A stretch of DNA of 64,000 nt from Nitrosopumilus sp. (GTDB lineage Archaea; Thermoproteota; Nitrososphaeria; Nitrososphaerales; Nitrosopumilaceae), in assembly GCA_965207075.1 (NCBI GenBank), contig CBDBLO010000002.1, positions 1,632,001-1,696,000 of the forward strand. Direction: 5' to 3'. A model generated the notes under the pieces. That model was not told the DNA's origin. It made no database searches and saw only the letters and a list, made by a program, of their open reading frames with translations. Positions 1,448 through 22,863 of this stretch are shown piece by piece. The stretch's first letter is position 1. Each line of letters starts with the position of its first letter. Both the position numbers and the translations under genes were made by a program.

Positions 1448-2557
1448 ATGCGCCTCTTGGAGTACCAGGCAAAGGAGCTGTTCAGGGAGTACGGCATAAG
1501 GCTTCTTGACGGCAGGTCGTCTACCAGCATCGAGGAGGCCAGAGGGCACGCCGGGGAGCTAGGATACCCGTTTGTGATAAAGATACAGGTGCCAGTCGGA
1601 GGAAGGGGCAAGGCCGGCGGCGTCCAGTCCTGCAGCAACCCAGACGAGTTTGAGATAAGGTACCCGCAGGTCATGAACCTGGTGATAAAAGGCGAGAAGG
1701 CAAGGGCCGTGCTCCTTGAGAAGATGGCAGACATCAAAAAGGAGCTGTACGTGTCGCTGTTCCTGAACCGCTCAAAGAGGTGTTACACGATAATAGCGTC
1801 ATCGGAGGGCGGGGTCGAGATCGAGTCGGTAAAGAGCCAGACCATAAGGGAGGTCGGCATGGGCGACGTGTCGCGCGAGACCGCCCTGGAGGTCGCGGGC
1901 CAGATCGGCCTTGACGGGAGGCTGGCAGACGGCTTTGCAGACACCCTGGTCAGGCTCTCGAGGCTGACCATAGAGAAGGAGGCCGAGCTCGCGGAGATAA
2001 ATCCGCTGGCAATCACCCCTGACGAATCCATAATAGCGCTCGACGGCAAGTTCGTGACAGACGACAACTCCAACTTCCGCCACCCCGAACTGGCAAAGTA
2101 CCAGGAAAAGTCAGAGATAGAGGAGAGGGCCGAGAAGAGCGGGTTCTCGCTTGTAGAGCTCGACGGCGACATCGCGGTGGTGGGAAACGGCGCGGGGCTG
2201 GTAATGTCCACGTTTGACATGCTGTCAGACAGCGGCGGCAAGCCGGCGTGCTTTCTTGACGTGGGCGGGGGCGCCACCACCGAGTCGGTATACGAGGCCC
2301 TCACGCTGATAAGCCGCATAAGGGGCGTCAGGAGCATACTTGTAAACCTGTACGGGGGCATAGTCAAGACGACGGTGGTGGCCGAGGCCTTCCTGAAGGC
2401 GTACGAGTCGGGCCTGATAGACATGCCGGTATACGCCAGGCTGAAGGGGACCGAGTCCGACAGGGCCAAGGAGATGCTGAGGGATTCGAGGACAGAGATG
2501 TTCGACTCTGTAGAGGGCGCCATAAACGCGGCCGTTCTTGGGGGCAAGAAGAGTTGA
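1448..2557 (+). CDS. sucC: succinyl-CoA synthetase beta subunit
   Basis: MRLLEYQAKELF start, GGRGKAGG, EINPL, GNGAGL, FLDVGGGA. Confidence 0.97.
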   Translation: MRLLEYQAKELFREYGIRLLDGRSSTSIEEARGHAGELGYPFVIKIQVPVGGRGKAGGVQSCSNPDEFEIRYPQVMNLVIKGEKARAVLLEKMADIKKELYVSLFLNRSKRCYTIIASSEGGVEIESVKSQTIREVGMGDVSRETALEVAGQIGLDGRLADGFADTLVRLSRLTIEKEAELAEINPLAITPDESIIALDGKFVTDDNSNFRHPELAKYQEKSEIEERAEKSGFSLVELDGDIAVVGNGAGLVMSTFDMLSDSGGKPACFLDVGGGATTESVYEALTLISRIRGVRSILVNLYGGIVKTTVVAEAFLKAYESGLIDMPVYARLKGTESDRAKEMLRDSRTEMFDSVEGAINAAVLGGKKS

Positions 2558-3498
2558 GGGACATATTCGAGGTGCTGAGGGGAAGCCCGGGCGACGCGGA
2601 CCACAACAAAAAGGGCGTCATAGTGCAGGGGATAACCGGGGCGTACGGCTCGCTGCATACAAGAAACATGATTTCATACGGGACCAACGTAGTGGCAGGC
2701 GTAACCCCCGGCAAGGGGGGGCAGAGGTTTGATGATGCCATACCCATATACGACACGATGGCCGAGGCGGTGGAGACGACGGGCGCTAGGATGTCTGCCG
2801 TGTTCGTCCCGGCAAAGTTCTTCCTGGGCGCCGCAAGGGAGGCGCTCGAGGCCGGAATCGAGCTGCTGGTCGCGATACCGGAGCACATACCGATACGCGA
2901 CACCATGAGCGCGCTGGACATGGCGCAGAAAAAGGACGCCAGGATCATAGGCCCCAACACGCCGGGAATAATGATACCCGGAATCATAAAGATAGGCATA
3001 ATGCCCCCCACGCCGTTCAAGCCCGGCAAGATAGCGGTACTCTCAAAGAGCGGCACTCTGCTCTACGAGATATCCGACGCGCTGAGCAGCGCTGGGTTCG
3101 GGCAGGCGATCACCATAGGAATAGGGGGGGATCCCGTGAACGGGACCAGGCTTATCGACGCATTTGAGATGGTCAGGGACGTGCCGGACATAGACGGCAT
3201 GGTGGTGGTCGGGGAGATAGGCGGAGACTCCGAGGAGATGCTGGCGCAGCGCATAATGGACACGGGGTTTGCAAAGCCCACAGTCGCGTATATAGCCGGA
3301 AGGGCGGCCCCCAAGGAGAAGCGCATGGGGCATGCGGGCGCAATCGTGATGGGCACGTACGGCTCCGCAGAGTCAAAGATATCCATGTTCAACAAGGCAA
3401 ACATCCCGGTTGCAAAGAGGCCCGCCGAGGTGCCGGTTCTGCTTGCCAAAAAGATGGAGAATGGGGGCGGCGGCGGCACGACTGGCGGCAGCGATTAG
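2554..3498 (+). CDS. sucD: succinyl-CoA synthetase alpha subunit
   Basis: VQGITG, GVTPGKGG, IGPNTPG, SKSGTL, MGHAGA (phospho-His); overlaps the sucC stop. Confidence 0.97.
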   Translation: MRDIFEVLRGSPGDADHNKKGVIVQGITGAYGSLHTRNMISYGTNVVAGVTPGKGGQRFDDAIPIYDTMAEAVETTGARMSAVFVPAKFFLGAAREALEAGIELLVAIPEHIPIRDTMSALDMAQKKDARIIGPNTPGIMIPGIIKIGIMPPTPFKPGKIAVLSKSGTLLYEISDALSSAGFGQAITIGIGGDPVNGTRLIDAFEMVRDVPDIDGMVVVGEIGGDSEEMLAQRIMDTGFAKPTVAYIAGRAAPKEKRMGHAGAIVMGTYGSAESKISMFNKANIPVAKRPAEVPVLLAKKMENGGGGGTTGGSD

Positions 3499-3528
3499 AA
3501 TAAAAAGAGCAAGGAAGGCGATCCAGTG

Positions 3529-3696
3529 ATGCCCATTACAGACCCGGAAAAGAAGCGTATAGCCCAGCAGGCGCGCCTGGTCATGAAGATATGCTTTGAC
3601 TGCGGCTGCCGCAACGACATAGGCGCGACCAGGTGCCGCAAGTGCCGCAACCCGTACCTCCGGCTCAAGAACCGCAACCTAGGCATCAAGAAGTAG
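3529..3696 (+). CDS. rpl40e: 50S ribosomal protein L40e (not in ORF track)
   Basis: Manual translation MPITDPEKKRIAQQARLVMKICFDCGCRNDIGATRCRKCRNPYLRLKNRNLGIKK; CxxC...CxxC ribbon. Confidence 0.95.
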   Translation: MPITDPEKKRIAQQARLVMKICFDCGCRNDIGATRCRKCRNPYLRLKNRNLGIKK

Positions 3697-3816
3697 AGCG
3701 GCGGCACGTGCCGAAAACTGGAATCCCGCTGCAGGCCCCGCAAGGGCAGCAATGAAGACCGCAGGGCCGCGCTGTGGCGGCAGAAGTGCGGGCCTGAGCA
3801 CGGGTGCGCGCCCCCG

Positions 3817-5898
3817 TCAGCGGCAGACTCTCTGCGAGGGATCGATTGTAAATGCGTCCCAGTGGCCCGCCGCAAACGGGTACGACGGGTCGTCGAACCT
3901 TTTCACCGTCAGTTCAGTGATGGTGCCGTCCGAATCCGTCGAGTATGAGTCAAGGTAGAACGGCCCGTTGCTCACCACCGGGTGCCCCCTGGCGTCTATC
4001 CACTGTATGGCCGCGTCGTACCGCTCGCTTACGTACGCGGTTGTCCTGTCGATATACAGAAAGCCAGGCACGTGGGCGTCGTGGCTCGCGCCCTTGAGCG
4101 CGACCAGGTGGCCCCTTATCAGGGCGATGTCAGAGGCGTCAAGCATGTCAAGCCAGCTTACGCCACGCGCAGACGCCGCGGCCGAATCCCAGTGGGTCTG
4201 GTTGTTGCCAACCGCAGACTCCATGGCGGCGTACACCTCCCAAGGCAGCGCGCTCCACGTGGTCGCGGCGCCTTCAATCTCGGTCTCATCAGAGTGCCAA
4301 TAATCCAGATACACCTCGATCGTGTCCCGGCCCGCGTCCGGCACCCTCAGCCCCACCGGAATGCTCGGATCGTCGGGCAGATCACTATGCTCGACGGCGA
4401 ACCACACGGCATAAAATATGTCATTCATGTCCATCGACAGGCCGTGGTGCCACTTTGAGAGGAGTAGGTCGATCACAACCTTGCTGGTGGCAGTCGTGCC
4501 CGGAGGCAGCTCGGTCCACGCATCAGCCTCCGCGCTCCAAGCCATCGTGCCCGGCGGCACTGCAAGCGTGTCGTCAGGCCCCGCAGTCTCCACGGAGGTC
4601 CAGACGTTCCTTGCAGGCACCAAGTCCGCAGTGTGCGGATTGCGCACCGCCCCAGAATCGCGCAAAAGCCGCCACACATCAAGACTGTATGTGTCAGACA
4701 GCCCTTCGACCGGGTTCCAAGAGCTCTGCGCCACGTGGCGCACGCCGATATCCAGGTGGGCGCTGCCGTCCGGCAGCTGCGCGTTGATCGGCGTGTACCT
4801 GTTTGCGATTCCAGAGCCCGGGGCGTTTACCACGCCCGTGACGCCGTCCCTTACCGCGTACGACTGGTGTGCGGCGGCAAGAAAGATGCGTACGGACTCG
4901 TCGACGCCAAGCTCGGTCGCACGCGTGACCAGAGACGCCCTCTCGTCAGGCGAGCCATACCCCATACGGTAGAGGGTCTGCGTCAGCCTGTCAAGCTCCG
5001 CGTGCTCATACTTCCACAGGGCGTTGTCCTCCGCACCTCCCGGCAGCCTGCCCGCCCAAGGGGCATAGAACGACGCAAGTATGGAATCGTCGTATTTGAT
5101 CACCCCAGAGCCGCCCCAGGCCTCCGTGTACAAGTGCCACGTTTGGGCCGCGGGGTCGGAGCCGTACACGGCGCTGTATACGTCGGACAGATCCCCGTAT
5201 ACTGTATTCACTGCAAAGCCCGCCCTGCCAAGATCCGCCACGAGCCTGTCCCCTATCGACTTGCGCACCGCGTCGTCGTCTCTGACAAATACCGTTATCT
5301 CTATGGGCTCGCCCCCGTAGGTCCACCTGCCATCAGAATCCCTCGAGGCGCCCGCACCAACAAGGGCCCCTTCAAAGAGGCGGTCGGCCTCCGCCGGGTC
5401 GTACCGCAGTCCGAGGGCGGCCAGCATGTCCTTCACCAGGCCGTAGTCTGGGTGTTGCGGGGTTATGGCAGAGAAGAGTTTGGAGCCCGAGCTGGGCAGA
5501 ACGTTTGTGATTATGTCATCCCGGTCCACCAGATAGTTAATCGCATACCTGGCGTCTGGCAACGAGAACGGGTTGAAGCCATTTGTGTGGTCGTCAGTTG
5601 GGTTTACATACATCGAGTAGACGGTGCCGCCCGTGGACTGCAGCACTTGGTGTCCCGCATCGCGCACCGCCTGAGACTCGTCTTTGGTTATCGGGAGATA
5701 GTACATGTCGATGTCTCCGGCTATCAGGTTGTCTATGGCCGCGGCCGGATCCTGCTTGATGAACGTCACGCTGTCCACGTATGCCCCCGCCTCCGCCGCG
5801 GCGTCCTGCGGCATGATTGAGGCGGCAGCGGCCATTGCAACGACCAGCGCCACTGCGAAGACTAGTACCGCAGAAGGATGCTGCAACGATGTACTCAC
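3817..5898 (-). CDS. ABC transporter substrate-binding protein, family 5 (peptide/nickel-like), copy 1
   Basis: Signal-peptide-like N-terminus; FNPFSL..RYAINYLVDR, SWNPV.GLSD.YS and SNGPFYLDSY motifs; start set at GTG about 23 nt after TTTTTAAA. Confidence 0.88.
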   Translation of the reverse strand: MSTSLQHPSAVLVFAVALVVAMAAAASIMPQDAAAEAGAYVDSVTFIKQDPAAAIDNLIAGDIDMYYLPITKDESQAVRDAGHQVLQSTGGTVYSMYVNPTDDHTNGFNPFSLPDARYAINYLVDRDDIITNVLPSSGSKLFSAITPQHPDYGLVKDMLAALGLRYDPAEADRLFEGALVGAGASRDSDGRWTYGGEPIEITVFVRDDDAVRKSIGDRLVADLGRAGFAVNTVYGDLSDVYSAVYGSDPAAQTWHLYTEAWGGSGVIKYDDSILASFYAPWAGRLPGGAEDNALWKYEHAELDRLTQTLYRMGYGSPDERASLVTRATELGVDESVRIFLAAAHQSYAVRDGVTGVVNAPGSGIANRYTPINAQLPDGSAHLDIGVRHVAQSSWNPVEGLSDTYSLDVWRLLRDSGAVRNPHTADLVPARNVWTSVETAGPDDTLAVPPGTMAWSAEADAWTELPPGTTATSKVVIDLLLSKWHHGLSMDMNDIFYAVWFAVEHSDLPDDPSIPVGLRVPDAGRDTIEVYLDYWHSDETEIEGAATTWSALPWEVYAAMESAVGNNQTHWDSAAASARGVSWLDMLDASDIALIRGHLVALKGASHDAHVPGFLYIDRTTAYVSERYDAAIQWIDARGHPVVSNGPFYLDSYSTDSDGTITELTVKRFDDPSYPFAAGHWDAFTIDPSQRVCR

Positions 5899-16980: not shown

Positions 16981-17913
16981 TTGGTAATGGAGATAGCAGG
17001 CTCGATCAATGCAAAGGAGAGGTGCCCGAGGTGCGCCCGCGACACCATGATCACGGACGGAAGCACGGGCGAGAACTTTTGCGGCAGCTGCGGCTACGTG
17101 GTGTCCGAGAAGGCAGAGGAGTCGGGCCCCGAGTGGCGCTCGTTCTCAAACGAGGGGGAGAACAAGAGCAGGGCCGGCGTGCCCACGTCCCTTGCCATGC
17201 ACGACATGGGGCTTGCAACCATCATCAACCCCCAGAACAGGGACGCCACAGGCAAGCCGCTGGCCGCGTCCATGAAGAGCACCATCGAGAGGCTGCGCAC
17301 GTGGGACAACAGGAGCCAGGTGCACGAGCCGGTCGACCGCAACTTCAGGCAGGCGTTCAGCGAGCTTGACAGGCTAAAGGACAAGCTCGGGGTCGGGGAG
17401 GCCGTCATCGAGAAGGCGGCCCACATATACAGAAAGGCCCTCGAGAAGGGGCTCGTCAGGGGGAGGTCTATATCGGCCCTCATAGCGTCCGCGCTGTACG
17501 CGGCGTGCCGCGTCACGGAGACGCCCCGCACGCTCAAGGACATAGGCCAGGCAAGCAACATAAAGCGCAAGGACATCGCAAGGTGCTACAGGCTGCTCCT
17601 CAGGGAGCTTGACATTACGATGCCCGTAGTCGATCCCATAAAGTGCATCTCAAGGATCGCAAGCAAGGCGGAGCTCTCCGAGCGCACAAAGCGCCACGCA
17701 ACGAAGATACTAAAGCTCGCCGAGCAGCACAAGATATCGGCCGGAAAGGACCCGATGGGGCTGGCTGCCGCCGCGCTGTACGTGGCGTGCACCGAGTGCG
17801 GCGAGAACAAGACCCAGAGGGACGTGGCCGAGGCCGCCGGCGTGACGGAGGTTACCATACGCAACAGGTACAAGGGGCTCAAGACGGCGCTAGACGGGAT
17901 GGTCTCGGCGTAG
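16981..17913 (+). CDS. tfb: transcription initiation factor IIB (TFB)
   Basis: CPRC..CGSCG zinc ribbon, GPEWRSF, two cyclin repeats, GVTEVTIRNRY. Confidence 0.98.
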   Translation: MVMEIAGSINAKERCPRCARDTMITDGSTGENFCGSCGYVVSEKAEESGPEWRSFSNEGENKSRAGVPTSLAMHDMGLATIINPQNRDATGKPLAASMKSTIERLRTWDNRSQVHEPVDRNFRQAFSELDRLKDKLGVGEAVIEKAAHIYRKALEKGLVRGRSISALIASALYAACRVTETPRTLKDIGQASNIKRKDIARCYRLLLRELDITMPVVDPIKCISRIASKAELSERTKRHATKILKLAEQHKISAGKDPMGLAAAALYVACTECGENKTQRDVAEAAGVTEVTIRNRYKGLKTALDGMVSA

Positions 17914-19044
17914 GGAACCGGCAGTTCTTGACGAAATTATTATCGCGATTACCGACAGGATCCCGCATACGGCCAGTATCACCTCCACTGAGAGCATCAT
18001 GGTGTGGGAGAACGCCTCCTCCAGCGGGACGAGGTGCGTCTGCGATATGAAGTGGGCGTGCGAGAATATGAAGTAGTTGGTGGCCCAGTGGACCAGGACC
18101 GACGCGACAAACCCGTACCTGACGTACACCCACCCCAGGATGATTCCGCCGGCGGCCGCCTGCGCAAACTTGCCCTCGCTCCACGGCTCGCCCAGCGCTA
18201 TGTGCGCAAAGCCGAACAGGAGCCCTACTGCCACGATCACCGCGAGCGCCCTCCTGTGATCGTCGATGCCGACCGCGTCGGGGCGCCACAGGCAGCGCGC
18301 CACGTACCGGAACGAGAAGCGCCCAGAATACATCAGGAAGACGGGTATCCCGACAAGCACGAGCCTAAAGCCGGTCTCCTCCACGATTGGCGCAAGCGAC
18401 ACGTAAAAGAACTCCACAAGGTCGTTTTCGGACTCGGGCGGGGCGGTCTCTATGCCTACATATCCCTGCGCGGCCGTTATTACGATTGACGCAAGCACCA
18501 GTATGGAGAACCACGTTATGACACCCAGCATGGAGTTGTCAAACCGGTGCGCCGTGCGCCGGCCCGCTATGACGTCAGATATGGCGCCCATAAACCCGCG
18601 GGCGGGGCCCATGCATGCGGTTGCAAACGCAACCAGGTACCCAAGCCACAGTATCACGAACGCGTCGCCGACTGACACCGGCGTGGGGGCAAGGTGCAGC
18701 CCCGTGCCCTCAAACAGGCTCAGGTGCGTCAGCGGCAGGTCGTAGTTGATGTCCCCCCCTATGCCGCTTGCAAAGACCACGAACGCCCCCATCGGGAAGG
18801 ATGCCAGAAACAGTCCGAACGTCACCGATATGAGGGCGGCGTGGGGGACTCCGAGCAGCTGCCGCGCAAGGGACTGCCTTGCCAGGGCGGCAGGCGCGGG
18901 GCTGCTGCCGCTGCTGCTGCCGGCAGCAGCGCCACTGTCGTCATCGGCGCGGCGGCCCGCGTCGTTGCAGTCGCCCCGGTCCTGTCCGCCCCGCGCGCCG
19001 CCGACGTCATCATCGTCAATGCTGCCGCTGCTGTCCGGGGGCAT
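17890..19044 (-). CDS. CPBP (CAAX-type) intramembrane metalloprotease
   Basis: APIVEETGFR, LFGFAH, VLVHWATN motifs; multiple TM segments. Confidence 0.88.
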   Translation of the reverse strand: MPPDSSGSIDDDDVGGARGGQDRGDCNDAGRRADDDSGAAAGSSSGSSPAPAALARQSLARQLLGVPHAALISVTFGLFLASFPMGAFVVFASGIGGDINYDLPLTHLSLFEGTGLHLAPTPVSVGDAFVILWLGYLVAFATACMGPARGFMGAISDVIAGRRTAHRFDNSMLGVITWFSILVLASIVITAAQGYVGIETAPPESENDLVEFFYVSLAPIVEETGFRLVLVGIPVFLMYSGRFSFRYVARCLWRPDAVGIDDHRRALAVIVAVGLLFGFAHIALGEPWSEGKFAQAAAGGIILGWVYVRYGFVASVLVHWATNYFIFSHAHFISQTHLVPLEEAFSHTMMLSVEVILAVCGILSVIAIIISSRTAGSLRRDHPV

Positions 19045-19045
19045 C

Positions 19046-19354
19046 TCAATGCAGCTCTATGCTCTCCTCGGCAAAGCCGAGCGAGACCAGCGTGTCCTTT
19101 ATCGTGTCGCGGTGGTCGCCCTGCAGAAAGATGTATCCCTCCTTTGCCGTTCCGCCGCAGGCGTACTTGTTTTTGAGATCCTTCGCGACCGTCTCAAGGC
19201 TGTTGATCTTGGGATCGAGCCCCTCGATCATCGTCCCCTTCTTCTTAAAGCGCCGCGTCTCCAGCCTGATTATAATCTTGGTGCTGTCCTTGGCAAGCTC
19301 CCCACATGCGCATAAGTCATCGGGTAGGCCACACGTATTACAGATTACCGCCAC
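19046..19354 (-). CDS. sui1: translation initiation factor aIF1/SUI1
   Basis: CNTCGLPDDLCAC, LKNKYACGGT, LQGDHR. Confidence 0.96.
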   Translation of the reverse strand: MAVICNTCGLPDDLCACGELAKDSTKIIIRLETRRFKKKGTMIEGLDPKINSLETVAKDLKNKYACGGTAKEGYIFLQGDHRDTIKDTLVSLGFAEESIELH

Positions 19355-19380
19355 GTTCGTTACCGATTGGCATCACATGC

Positions 19381-19394
19381 TATTAAGGTTTGAG
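19381..19394 (-). promoter_or_regulatory. BRE-TATA of the aIF1/SUI1 gene
   Basis: Minus-strand CTCAAA-CCTTAATA about 27 nt upstream of the GTG start. Confidence 0.65.
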
Positions 19395-19409
19395 GAGATC
19401 TTGACTCGT
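19395..19409 (+). repeat. 15-bp direct repeat GAGATCTTGACTCGT, copy 1 (target-site duplication)
   Basis: Identical copies at 20747-20761 and 21800-21814. Confidence 0.95.
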
Positions 19410-20746
19410 TGAAGAGTCGGGGAATCATGTCACCCCGACGCATAAGAGAGCCGACATGGAGGGAGGCGTAATGACACCTCAAACCAAGTATGACGAACAT
19501 GTCCTCATACAGGAACAAAGGGAGGAGACCGAGCGCATACTCAAGACCGCCAGCGAGAAGGGCAGGAAGCCCATACGCAAGCTGGACACGCTTGACGCAA
19601 GGTTCATCGTCCGCGAAAAGAGGAGGGGGACAAGCAACAAGACGATTGCAGGCATCCTGAAGGTCTGCATAAGGCAGGTGCAGCGCATCTGGAGCCGGTT
19701 CAGGCGCCTCGACACGGGGCGGATACTGTACCTTCCAAGGCGCCCCGGCAGGCACCGGAAGGGCGAGCCGGGGCGCAGGGAGCACTCCGCGGTTTTGGCC
19801 GCGTTCGGCCGGGTCGTAAACGGCGCGTCTGCCACATACTGGCACATCAGGAACGCGGGGGACCACGTCCCAAAGGACGCCGTGCACCGGGTGCTGCTTG
19901 AGAACGGGCTGGCGCGCGAGGAGCACGCCAAGAAGAGGCAGCGCAGGTACGTGAGGTACGAGCGGAGGCACAGCAACACGCTCTGGCACACGGACTATAC
20001 GCAGCTGGAGGACGGGAGGTGGCTGATCGTATACGTGGACGACTCGTCCCGGTACATCGTCGGACACGGCGTGTTTGACCGCGCCACGTCCGAGAACGCC
20101 ACCGCGGTCTTCAAGCAGGCCTGCCTGGCGCACGGGACGCCGTACTCGGTCCTGACCGACCACGGATCCCAGTTCTACGCCATGGAGTCCGAGGCAAAGC
20201 GCGAAAGGGGGCGCACGCACTTTGAGGAGCACCTCGGGGACGCCGGCGTAAAGCAGATCCTGGCGCGCGTGGGGCATCCCCAGACCAATGGCAAGGCGGA
20301 GCGCGTGTTCAAGGAGTACAAGTACAAGGTGGGGCACTTTGCCGACGTTGCGGGACCGCCGGGCACGGCGGCCCCGTTTGGCGCCCCCGCCGCAATGGAG
20401 AGCGACCCGACTGCCAGGTTCGTCAGGAACCACAACAACAAGCCGCACGGCAGCCTGTACGGGCAGACGCCCGCGGACGCATACCGCGAGCGGAGGCTCC
20501 CAGAGGGCCGGTCATACAAGGATGACGACGGGTAAGACACCTCAGTCAACCCCGCCGTAGGACCCTCCAGCGTATGCTGCGCACGATCATGTAAAAGCGT
20601 ACCTTTCGCGGCAGTTCGCGCACGTCGGGCACGCTGCCGGCCGCTTGGGCTGGCCCAGCGGAACCGGGAATTCAAAATTCATATGGAGTCCAGGCATGCG
20701 TGGAGCAATGTCACGACACACCGTGACATCATTTTCCGACTCTACA
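19410..20746 (+). mobile_element. IS481-family insertion sequence A (1337 bp)
   Basis: TIRs TGAAGAGTCGGGGAATCATGTCAC / GTGACATCATTTTCCGACTCTACA; flanked by 15-bp DR. Confidence 0.93.
19456..20535 (+). CDS. IS481-family DDE transposase A
   Basis: HTH, RYER.HSN.LWHTD, DDSSR, TDHGSQF, HPQTNGKAER; start may be ATG 19471 after GGAGG. Confidence 0.95.
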   Translation: MEGGVMTPQTKYDEHVLIQEQREETERILKTASEKGRKPIRKLDTLDARFIVREKRRGTSNKTIAGILKVCIRQVQRIWSRFRRLDTGRILYLPRRPGRHRKGEPGRREHSAVLAAFGRVVNGASATYWHIRNAGDHVPKDAVHRVLLENGLAREEHAKKRQRRYVRYERRHSNTLWHTDYTQLEDGRWLIVYVDDSSRYIVGHGVFDRATSENATAVFKQACLAHGTPYSVLTDHGSQFYAMESEAKRERGRTHFEEHLGDAGVKQILARVGHPQTNGKAERVFKEYKYKVGHFADVAGPPGTAAPFGAPAAMESDPTARFVRNHNNKPHGSLYGQTPADAYRERRLPEGRSYKDDDG

Positions 20747-20761
20747 GAGATCTTGACTCGT
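20747..20761 (+). repeat. 15-bp direct repeat, copy 2 (between the two IS elements)
   Basis: GAGATCTTGACTCGT. Confidence 0.95.
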
Positions 20762-21799
20762 TCTATTATACGGAAAGTAGGTCACCGCAGGATCAGGCGG
20801 ACTGTAGCCGATTATTTTAGGCTGTACCGATCACGAAAGCCAGTGTCAAAGGGACTGACAGAAAAGGCCGGGAAGCACCTGGTCAGGAGGCTCGGGAAGG
20901 GGGTGCCGGCTCCCGAAGTGGCAAGGGACCTTGGAATCTCCATCCGGCATGTACGAAGGCTGTGGGCAAGGTTCCAGAAGACCGGGACCATACGCGTGCA
21001 GATGGGCAGGCCGCGCTCCTGCATCACGGGGGCCCAGATACGGCTGATAACCGACGCCCACCAAAGGCGGCCGGTCGGAGTCGTACGCACCGCAAGGGAG
21101 CTGAGAAGGAATCACGATATTAGTTACGCCGCCGTGTACCGCGTGTTGAAGAAGAGCGGCGCCGTGGAGGCCTCGGCGGCAAGATCAAAGAGGCGCAAGT
21201 GGGTGCGGTACGAACGCACGTACTCCAACGCCATGTGGCATACGGACTGGCATGTCATGAAGGATCCCCGCTTTTCAGGCATGAATCTCATCACATATTT
21301 GGACGATGCGTCCCGGTGCGTTACGGGCGCGGCGCTCTTCGAGCACGCCACGTCCGAGAACGCGGTAATGCTCCTCAGGCTCGCAATCAAGAGGTTCGGC
21401 TCCCCCGCGTCCATACTGTCCGACAACGGATCGTGCTTTGTGGGGCAGAACGGCCGCAAGAAGGGAAAGGGGAAGTGGCAGCCCACCGTCTTTGAGGAGG
21501 AGCTGCTTGAGAGGGACATTGCCCTGATAAACGCCCGTCCCTACCACCCCCAGACTAACGGCAAGTTGGAGAGATTCCACCGCAGCCTGGAGGAGGAGAT
21601 ATACCACTATGGCAGCCTCAGGGAGTACGTAGACTATTACAACGAGTCAAGGCTGCACTTCTCGTTGGACATCGACAACTACGAGACGCCGCAGATGGCC
21701 TTCAGGAACAAGAGGGCGACCGAGGCGATCAGGAAGAACGACCCGAAATGGATGGAGAAGGATGCACATGAGTAGCGGACCGACTTTTCATATAATACA
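20762..21799 (+). mobile_element. IS481-family insertion sequence B (1038 bp)
   Basis: TIRs TCTATTATACGGAAAGTAGGTC / GACCGACTTTTCATATAATACA; flanked by the same 15-bp DR. Confidence 0.93.
20843..21775 (+). CDS. IS481-family DDE transposase B
   Basis: WVRYER.YSNAMWHTDW, DDASR, SDNGSCF, HPQTNGKLERFH; start set at GTG inside the element. Confidence 0.95.
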   Translation: MSKGLTEKAGKHLVRRLGKGVPAPEVARDLGISIRHVRRLWARFQKTGTIRVQMGRPRSCITGAQIRLITDAHQRRPVGVVRTARELRRNHDISYAAVYRVLKKSGAVEASAARSKRRKWVRYERTYSNAMWHTDWHVMKDPRFSGMNLITYLDDASRCVTGAALFEHATSENAVMLLRLAIKRFGSPASILSDNGSCFVGQNGRKKGKGKWQPTVFEEELLERDIALINARPYHPQTNGKLERFHRSLEEEIYHYGSLREYVDYYNESRLHFSLDIDNYETPQMAFRNKRATEAIRKNDPKWMEKDAHE

Positions 21800-21814
21800 G
21801 AGATCTTGACTCGT
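21800..21814 (+). repeat. 15-bp direct repeat, copy 3
   Basis: GAGATCTTGACTCGT. Confidence 0.95.
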
Positions 21815-22077
21815 GCGGGTTTGCCTGTCCATAAAAATATCAGAAATTACGCACAAATTTTGACGCCTCGATCAGGTTCAGGCAGGGGTGCCGAATCCAC
21901 ACCGCGATTCTCTGAAAACTGTTTGTAGCCGGCCGCATGCGCGGATTAGTGAAACCCGGTGCGGCCATCGGCAAGAGGCGGCGCAGAGAGGACGGGCGCA
22001 CGGGTCCCGCGGCGAGCGGCATCGGCTCGGAAGGGTGGACGGCGCAGTTTTTTAGCGCCCGTGTCATACGGGGCGCG

Positions 22078-22554
22078 TTGGCGCACAAGGACGGCGGCGG
22101 AGAGAAAGAGAGGGAGCGCGTCAGGCGCGCCGCGGAGATGCTGCTTGCCGGGGCCACCCTGCTGGGGCACCCATGCCCCTACTGCGGGGGCGTCAGGGTG
22201 ATCAAGGATGGCGACGCGCTGTGCGTCAGCTGCGGACAAGAACCGGAGAGACGGGACGTGCCGATAACGGCCCCCCAGGACGGCGGCAGCGACGCAGAAG
22301 ATCATGCGGGCGCAGAGAGGACGGGCGCACGCGCGCAACTGCGGGGGCGGCGGCGGCAGCAGCAGCAACGGCGCAACCTGATCGACGTTCTGGAGAAAAA
22401 GCTCGAGTCGCTTGCCGGCGAGCTTGAGTCGGAGACGGACAGGAAAAGGGAGATTGCCATACTGGATTCAATCGAGGGCGTACTCTCAGCCCTAGAAAAG
22501 GCCAGGGGCGTCACAGACGGCGGCAGTGGCGGCAACGGTGCGGGAACCGCATGA
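22078..22554 (+). CDS. UPF0148 / autoantigen p27-like zinc-ribbon protein
   Basis: AAEMLLAGATLLGHPCPYCGG...CVSCG; start uncertain (TTG after TTTTTTAG). Confidence 0.8.
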   Translation: MAHKDGGGEKERERVRRAAEMLLAGATLLGHPCPYCGGVRVIKDGDALCVSCGQEPERRDVPITAPQDGGSDAEDHAGAERTGARAQLRGRRRQQQQRRNLIDVLEKKLESLAGELESETDRKREIAILDSIEGVLSALEKARGVTDGGSGGNGAGTA

Positions 22555-22863
22555 CGGCCGCATGCTGCGCGCGGCAGCGCGGCCCGAGTCGCGGTCGTCG
22601 CCTTGCGCCGTCGGGCATATCGGCGCAACGTGGATGAGAAAACCCGCAACCGCAGGCCGCAGGACCTCAGCGCGCCGCGTATGCGCCGCCGACACAAAGG
22701 GCCCGGCGCATGCCAGCGGATCGCGCGGCGGCCAGCCAGGGCCGCCCGCGGCAGCACGCAGCAGGTGGAAGCTGGCCAGATTCTGACAGCAACCCGCGGC
22801 AGAACCGCGGCCGTCTAAAAGATGACCCCTGAGTTTAAATCAAGAGTCGTGTCCGCACATACA

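Follow-up and report, generated by a model that had tools for sequence, protein, structure and literature searches.

Promoter- or factor-tethered integration is known from the yeast elements Ty3/Ty1 and Tf1, from Tn7 at attTn7 and from the IS1202 subgroup at XerCD sites, and safe parking before promoters is described for yeast retrotransposons and Tn7-like elements. In the IS481 family of insertion sequences (ISs), the target-site duplications range from 2 to 15 bp and the archaeal members ISMac4 and ISA0963-1 have duplications of 15 bp, according to the available text of PMC10045372. IS30 and IS911 can insert next to the resident end of the same element, leaving the two ends at a fixed short spacer (available text of PMC9333248), and thaumarchaeal casposons integrate in tandem into the same site (available text of PMC6563490). 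The locus described here lies in a 64-kb stretch of DNA from Nitrosopumilus sp. (the window, intended as the whole stretch analysed), whose source genome comprises 2.23 Mb in two contigs; two different IS481-like elements, ISa and ISb, are stacked upstream of a gene for the translation initiation factor SUI1/aIF1, separated and flanked by three copies of one 15-bp target-site duplication. The evidence argues, with moderate confidence, for insertion directed to promoters, which would explain stacks that share a direct repeat (DR).

The arrangement DR-ISa-DR-ISb-DR, proposed in a first-pass annotation of this DNA, was confirmed, as the 15-mer GAGATCTTGACTCGT occurs exactly three times in the window (19395-19409, 20747-20761 and 21800-21814), around two complete elements on the same strand (+). 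No further match was found in the 64 kb at up to two mismatches; the chance expectation is 0.09 and none of 100 shuffles reached at least three matches. The two transposases are clearly divergent, as that annotation had stated, with 35% identity over 255 aa. The features of the locus are the following:

19395..19409, no strand: target-site duplication copy 1 (promoter-proximal), exact match
19410..20746, + strand: ISa, IS481-like, 1337 bp, with 7 full genome copies at 98-100% identity
19410-19434 (TGAAGAGTCGG...) and 20722-20746 (...CCGACTCTACA): inverted ends of ISa, imperfect, 25 nt, 20/25 matching
19456..20535, + strand: ISa transposase, 359 aa, DDE/rve (Pfam rve, E 4.9e-15; NCBIfam IS481 model, 161.7 bits)
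20747..20761, no strand: target-site duplication copy 2 (spacer between ISa and ISb), exact match
20762..21799, + strand: ISb, IS481-like, 1038 bp, with two close and two diverged further genome copies
20762-20786 (TCTATTATACGG...) and 21775-21799 (...CATATAATACA): inverted ends of ISb, 19/25 matching
20843..21775, + strand: ISb transposase (Pfam rve, E 2.2e-13, and rve_3; NCBIfam IS481 model, 174.9 bits)
21800..21814, no strand: target-site duplication copy 3 (distal), exact match
19046..19354, - strand: SUI1/aIF1 translation initiation factor gene, 102 aa, GTG start at 19354 (Pfam SUI1, E 4.2e-19)
19381..19391, - strand: SUI1 promoter, with an A-tract similar to the B recognition element (BRE) at 19389-19391 and the TATA box CTTAATA at 19381-19387

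The copies of both elements elsewhere in the genome, which for ISb are the two close ones (100% and 97%) and the two diverged ones (83% and 79%), align only to query positions 16-1352 (ISa) or 16-1053 (ISb), and their flanks all differ. A perfect 15-bp duplication surrounds 5 of the 6 other full ISa copies, each time of different sequence, and all three solo ISb-type copies have one of 15-16 bp, so that this length is the normal footprint of these elements, in agreement with the earlier statement that some IS481 members have DRs of up to ~15 bp; a third element, ISc (1131 bp, 3 copies), also has duplications of 15-16 bp, a size at or just over the top of the range given for the IS481 family in PMC10045372. 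Since the other copies lack the 15-mer and carry different duplications of their own, the repeat is a footprint of insertion and not cargo. Two candidate explanations are ruled out by these comparisons: the 15-mer is not a part of the element ends, being missing from the other copies, and the 15 bp are not a sequence-specific target, the duplications being different at every site. The tabulation of copies, which the first-pass annotation had indicated as a check, therefore supports its idea of two independent insertions of different elements into the same 15 bp: every other complete copy with a duplication has a different one, and stacking recurs in nine pairs.

The probable determinant of the site was found beside the duplication. 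The loci considered derive from the source genome, five congeneric genomes and 80 public loci, for the most part from long-read assemblies of Nitrosopumilaceae and Cenarchaeum. They include 77 distinct elements that have both their ends and bear a perfect duplication of 15 or 16 bp, 69 of which are solo and 8 in stacks; among the solo sites the duplication measures 15 bp in 55 and 16 bp in 14. The duplicated sequences themselves have nothing in common, while their flanks share a motif. In the 138 outward flanks of the 69 solo sites, positions 3-5 are A-rich (A at position 5 in 77), position 8 is a pyrimidine, T is found at position 9 in 78 and at position 10 in 84, and A at positions 11 and 13 (78 at the latter). 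Independently of any matrix, TTWAW pentamers start at positions 8-11 in 38 of the 56 cases, before position 8 in 3 and beyond position 11 in 15. In a leave-one-out comparison with 500 random places of the same sequence, p<=0.05 was obtained at 56/69 sites and p<=0.01 at 39/69, and a matrix trained on 30 sites of 6 genomes gave p<=0.05 at 25/38 and p<=0.01 at 16/38 sites of the other genomes. The motif is one-sided at 49 solo sites, two-sided at 10 and weak at 10; it lies at the left end of the element 24 times and at the right end 25 times, the orientation of the element being random relative to it. These sites thus have a one-sided determinant at a fixed distance from the cut, as is characteristic of promoter-directed integration. 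The shared targeting mechanism postulated in the first-pass annotation is in this sense borne out, with the correction that the aim is not the 15-mer but the adjacent promoter motif at a fixed register.

In archaea, the promoter of a leaderless mRNA has a BRE-like A-tract and a TATA box, followed by the start codon ~27-30 nt later, and the layout of the flank motif is presumably of this leaderless type. Strong hits of the motif number 444 genome-wide, 83 of which fall 36-40 nt ahead of the first outward open reading frame (ORF) start, against 18-25 in the neighbouring 5-nt bins. ORFs of at least 50 aa starting at positions 35-43 were found in 29/68 best flanks, in 9/68 of the other flanks and at 17% of random places; in addition, the first-ATG upstream profile of 1042 long ORFs, based on crude start calls, has a weak enrichment of A and then of T at -35 to -24 and was less informative than the distance between hits and ORFs. 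The left flank of the stack in the window has the outward sequence ctcAAAccTTAATAg, with the GTG start of SUI1 at position 41 and a flank score of 6.6 at the canonical register, while on the right flank of the stack the promoter-like motif is absent at this register (score -1.6). All 29 relatives' loci examined retain the block cAAAC..CTTAATAG ahead of SUI1, and conservation does not extend beyond this block. On account of the genome-wide distance between hits and ORFs and of the conservation of the SUI1 block, the flank motif, A-tract plus TATA box, is taken as the general promoter of the host. Mimicry of this motif by the elements' own tips was considered by eye; the two agree in part, at tip positions 8 and 13-15, and do not match convincingly.

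The stack in the window has counterparts in other loci. A position-weight matrix built from 76 distinct validated inverted-repeat tips (consensus TGTATTATACGAAAATTAGTTCCCC) was applied to the same loci and, for facing tips at a distance of -5 to 200 bp, identified 8 distinct pairs, whose spacers measure 13, 14, 15, 15, 15, 15, 17 and 25 bp, none being of 0-12 or 26-200 bp; a ninth tip-to-tip pair, in locus L163, was spotted by eye and has a 17-bp spacer, so that the spacer is 13-17 bp in 8/9 pairs. The duplicated core is present in triplicate in five stacks, namely those of the window (15 nt), L154 (15 nt, at positions 1026, 3899 and 4983), L068, L069 and L213 (13 nt each); the older partner in L213 is a 232-bp miniature inverted-repeat transposable element (MITE) bearing its own intact 15-bp duplication. 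The junctions are right-to-left in the window and in L068, and left-to-left in L069 and at C2:799834/799850. Against these nine tip-abutting pairs stands a single nested insertion, in L068 (G002) at 2171-4692, where a 1434-bp element (2330-3763, duplication AGACGTCCCAGATTG) lies within an element of the 1074-bp type that keeps its own duplication CTTTCAAGCGGTTCC.

The recurrent spacers of one duplication length, together with the single nested case, exclude two random hits on the same bases as well as a mere tolerance of insertions near resident elements. Insertion without any targeting, in which only random events in a short neutral gap upstream of promoters survived and two of them coincided, would agree with the fact that in compact genomes most surviving insertions are necessarily intergenic, and selection, which certainly bars insertion into the TATA box or the A-tract, explains the lower bound of the distance. 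Selection cannot, however, set the upper bound, which is sharp too, as is evident from the distribution of the TTWAW starts; moreover, landing inside a resident 1-kb element should be equally neutral, yet nesting is confined to the one case in L068, facing tips 26-200 bp apart are missing, and the base-pair coincidence of two random hits in a 2.2-Mb genome would be ~1 in a million per pair. Undirected insertion is consequently a very improbable origin of the pattern.

The stacks are also polar. The outer flank is promoter-like on one side only in 7/9 of them (scores 4.3-8.7 versus -1.6 to 2.0), and the intact duplication of the proximal element holds nucleotides of the partner's tip in L068, L161 and L154 (1 nt each) and in L213 (2 nt), which indicates that in these four the proximal element arrived second; in L163 the element with the intact duplication is again the proximal one. 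The younger element is therefore promoter-proximal in 5/5 stacks whose order can be read. In L068, the promoter-side boundaries of the two duplications coincide and the far boundary extends into the tip of the resident, which agrees better with a distance measured from the promoter than with one measured from the tip. The resemblance to repeat-spacer or cassette acquisition noticed in the first-pass annotation holds for the polar growth at a fixed flank and for the duplication of the repeat; for the rest it is a formal analogy that suggests no function, and stacks of more than two elements were not seen in these loci.

An element end, instead of the promoter, could also guide the newcomer, which would be drawn to the inverted repeat of a related resident, cut at the junction between tip and flank and duplicate again the resident's duplication. 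The clustering of the tip-to-tip spacers at one duplication length agrees with this explanation, and so does the newcomer's cut, which in 7 pairs lies at -2 to +2 nt relative to the resident tip; cross-recognition is conceivable, the ends of the families having a common consensus (TGTATTATACGAAAATTAGTTC, A reaching at least 90% at positions 13-15), and IS30 is on record, in the available text of PMC9333248, as having two specificities, one for hot spots and one for its own ends. On the other hand, the 69 solo sites display the promoter register without any resident, the newcomer occupies the promoter-proximal tip in all five stacks of known order (p ~0.03 for a random choice of tip), and its duplication in L068 keeps the promoter-side boundary and not a fixed distance from the tip. 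Furthermore, according to the same text, IS30-type events join left to right ends only and within the same element, whereas here the orientations are mixed and the partners are different elements (transposases 35% identical). Guidance by resident ends is unlikely to account for the stacks, and it may act as a contributor beside promoter targeting.

Direction by promoters, the preferred reading, has to be weighed against several observations, the first four of which count at the same time in favour of the resident ends. The nine stacks beside 69 solo sites are, on the author's estimate, ~10 times above what a uniform choice among ~1000 promoters would give, and this excess of double occupancy means that few promoters are permissive or hot, or that the resident element adds attraction; the older partner in L161 and L163 lacks a distal duplication; the spacer in L192 is 25 bp; and at C2:798726-801187 a pair with a 15-bp spacer shows neither duplications nor a promoter-like flank. 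In addition, the motif is weak in 10/69 solo sites, an ORF start lies at the expected distance in just 29/68 best flanks, the matrix and the set of sites have one clade as their common source, related genomes not being independent of each other, the three identical repeats of the window do not reveal which element entered first, and selection against insertions at other places must contribute to the promoter-proximal pattern. As for the pair at G000:C2:798726-801187, the left ends of a degenerate ISb-like copy (83%, - strand) and of an ISa copy (98%, + strand) face each other with exactly 15 bp between them (CACAAGTTCCGGCGC); the pair is perhaps the remnant of a stack after adjacent deletions.

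According to promoter-directed insertion, the DDE transposases of this archaeal IS481-like clade would cut the target a little way upstream of host promoters, always at the same position and with a stagger of 15-16 bp. From the edge of the duplication it is 2 nt to the BRE-like A-tract, 7-8 nt to the TATA box and ~38-41 nt to the start codon, and the gene concerned reads away from the element; in the window the targeted promoter would be that of SUI1. The promoter and the adjacent 15-bp copy would survive the insertion untouched and the target would thereby be regenerated. With the promoter and one DR left intact, a second element using the same promoter would cut the same 15 bp, with a scatter in register of 1-2 nt, and generate the order promoter-DR-IS(new)-DR-IS(old)-DR, so that in the window ISb presumably arrived first and ISa second. 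The chemistry is probably of the copy-out-paste-in type, by analogy with the IS3/IS481 families, and the promoter could be sensed through direct reading of the DNA or through contact with bound TBP/TFB or with the bend that they produce.

The possibility of an assembly artefact, in which ISa and ISb sit at separate places and were joined via a spurious 15-mer, was considered in the light of read-derived contigs. Both elements are multi-copy repeats, and the central ISa-15-mer-ISb junction, which is given by the assembly, was not seen among the contig pieces listed (185 others are outside this list). The outer junctions are bridged without differences by contigs from two runs of two studies, X19 and X20, from the left flank into ISa (18600-19439) and from ISb into the right flank (21770-22700), with the limit that X19 or X20 may itself be the source of the window assembly. 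A misjoin would not yield three identical 15-mers missing from all other copies, and equivalent stacks are present in four other independently assembled genomes; an artefact is hence barely credible. The empty allele, whose search had been suggested by the first-pass annotation, was found in a related strain (run X2, flanks ~92-94% alike), where a contig joins position 19394 to 21802. Over window positions 19422-20790 the summed contig depth on ISa in this run amounts to ~14-27 times the flank value, a sign that ISa may have expanded more in that strain. Among the species representatives of the genus an exact empty site was not recoverable, the intergenic DNA being too diverged (the gene itself has 70-83% identity), and the SUI1 gene is present in 38/41 searched genomes of the genus.

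The transposases place both elements near the IS481 family. NF033577, the NCBIfam IS481 model, is the top IS-family model for both, with IS3 and ISNCY as runners-up at 61-76 bits, and each element has one long rve-type frame without programmed frameshift, as in the single-frame IS481 members. The curated cut-off of this model (224 bits) is not reached by either ISa or ISb, and for this reason they are labelled "IS481-like": the family name used in the first-pass annotation stands as the best match, and both scores remain below the cut-off. A search against solved structures returned distant matches to the IS5376 transposase only (E ~1e-4). In ISb the catalytic residues D133, D192 and E241 are invariant (alignment A1); the frame is open from the first base of the element, and the GTG at 20843 is the likely start of the transposase, placed by comparison with the initial Met of related families. 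Both elements have right ends in ...ACA, and their left ends start with TGA (ISa) and TCT (ISb), the family type being TGT...ACA, and the tip consensus for the clade is TGTATTATAC. Judging from these sequences, ISa and ISb are new elements, diverged within an archaeal IS481-like clade that has the known long duplication.

In most families of the clade no stop codon interrupts the transposase frame between the first base of the left end and the likely start, ~27 codons further on, and this stretch encodes a conserved peptide S-I-[IV]-x-K-[VL]... (left ends of elements in L068, L069 and L103-L142). In the window this allows an ORF at 20645-21775 to run from inside the right end of ISa across the middle repeat into ISb. 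A 1042-1061-bp element in L207, a contig labelled Cyclobacteriaceae, is the same as that of a Nitrosopumilus assembly of the same series (L205-L214), which is probably due to a binning error rather than to transfer.

In the surroundings of the stack, Rfam and tRNA scans of 17-24 kb revealed no RNA genes at the site. A gene for a TFB (TFIIB-type) factor, one of the four in the genome, lies at 17338-17883 (+), ~1.5 kb off the stack; the source genome also has two TBP genes, located elsewhere. In another species, in L099 (G028) at 1835-2165, the DNA ahead of the orthologous SUI1 promoter holds two different MITEs of ~140 bp with common ends GTATGACTT...AAGTCATAC, which are stacked with a shared 8-bp duplication (GTTTTGCA, GTTTTGCA, GTTCTACA); the MITE with the perfect duplication pair is the promoter-proximal one, and the stack begins 3 nt farther from the TATA box than in the IS481-like register. 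No insertion at the equivalent SUI1 site was present in the other 28 relatives' loci.

Further repeats were encountered in the same loci. The triple repeats of L215 (3580-8080) were ruled out as a stack, as they belong to a separate MITE family of ~100 bp with ends GTATGAGTTCAC...GTGAACTCATAC, one copy of which contains an inserted IS481-like element (3838-4796). Tandem repeats of ~920-1180 bp inside very large ORFs, at G000:C2:802849-806159, 1110027-1113400, 1822421-1825800 and 2033076-2036500, surfaced as noise of the triple-repeat scan and possibly correspond to repeat-domain surface proteins. A 1245-bp rve element, unrelated in appearance and with ends TGGAGTGGACCCC..., is found at G000:C2:446842-448086, 724537-725781 and 1515651-1516895; its 3 nearly identical copies have 3-bp duplications and lack the promoter register, and they are too few to serve as a control.

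If insertion is directed to promoters, an archaeal IS family would spare a compact genome by parking at a spot defined to the base pair ahead of promoters, and stacks sharing a duplication would be explained without a site-specific sequence. The elements would also be natural markers of promoter position in uncultured Nitrosopumilaceae, and a testable question would be whether a DDE transposase reads the BRE/TATA DNA itself or the TBP/TFB complex; the finding would also bear on why IS481-like elements with 15-bp duplications could enter eukaryotes. A wider and only tentative proposal, which is doubtful as it stands, is that the transposases of the clade are guided by the basal transcription complex (TFB/TBP on BRE/TATA, or its bend) as a prokaryotic counterpart of Ty3/Ty1-type promoter-tethered integration, that the trait may be common to other IS481 elements with 15-bp duplications, including the eukaryotic IS481EU, and that the stacks grow in a polar manner, as a CRISPR array does at its leader.

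Full-text literature searches, whose scope was the papers without their supplements and without ISfinder/TnPedia entries, found neither a promoter-register preference nor polar stacks sharing a duplication, and in the parts of this literature that were available no promoter-parking strategy was found for an archaeal DDE insertion sequence. The word "tandem" does not occur in the available text of the IS481EU paper (PMC10045372), nor do "promoter", "TATA" and "target site" in that of a 2026 survey of archaeal ISs (PMC13343696); the available text of a survey of thaumarchaeal mobile elements (PMC6563490) speaks of casposons and proviruses in tandem and does not contain "IS481".

In comparison with known systems, the nearest to ISa and ISb are the IS481 members with long duplications (ISMac4, ISA0963-1 and IS481EU), with which they share a single DDE/rve frame, the right end ...ACA of the TGT...ACA type, a size of ~1-1.4 kb and duplications of 15-16 bp; the differences are the scores under the curated cut-off and the left ends TGA and TCT, and neither the promoter-register preference nor the stacks sharing a duplication are mentioned for IS481 members in the available text of PMC10045372. 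IS30 and IS911 belong to the same IS3-related copy-out-paste-in world and likewise insert beside a resident end with a fixed short spacer (available text of PMC9333248). Their events, as far as this text describes, involve a partner of the same element, a left-to-right junction only and a branched single-strand transfer; in contrast, the stacks here do not follow the same-element, left-to-right rule, having different partners in any orientation, a newcomer fully duplicated on both sides and a promoter motif at solo sites. Casposons and CRISPR acquisition are similar in the duplications of ~14-15 bp, in the tandem integration at the same site and in the polar addition at a fixed flank with duplication of the repeat, but they depend on a Cas1-type integrase and target the 3' ends of genes or leader-repeat junctions, so that the resemblance is formal. 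The tethered integrators of yeast and the Tn7-like elements have other enzymes and hosts; here the partner protein is only hypothetical, direct reading of the motif being equally possible, and, unlike Tn7, the elements have random orientation. What these integrators have in common with the IS481-like stacks is a one-sided determinant, a cut at a fixed distance from it, a gene that is spared in a "safe haven" and the possibility of repeated hits at the same site.

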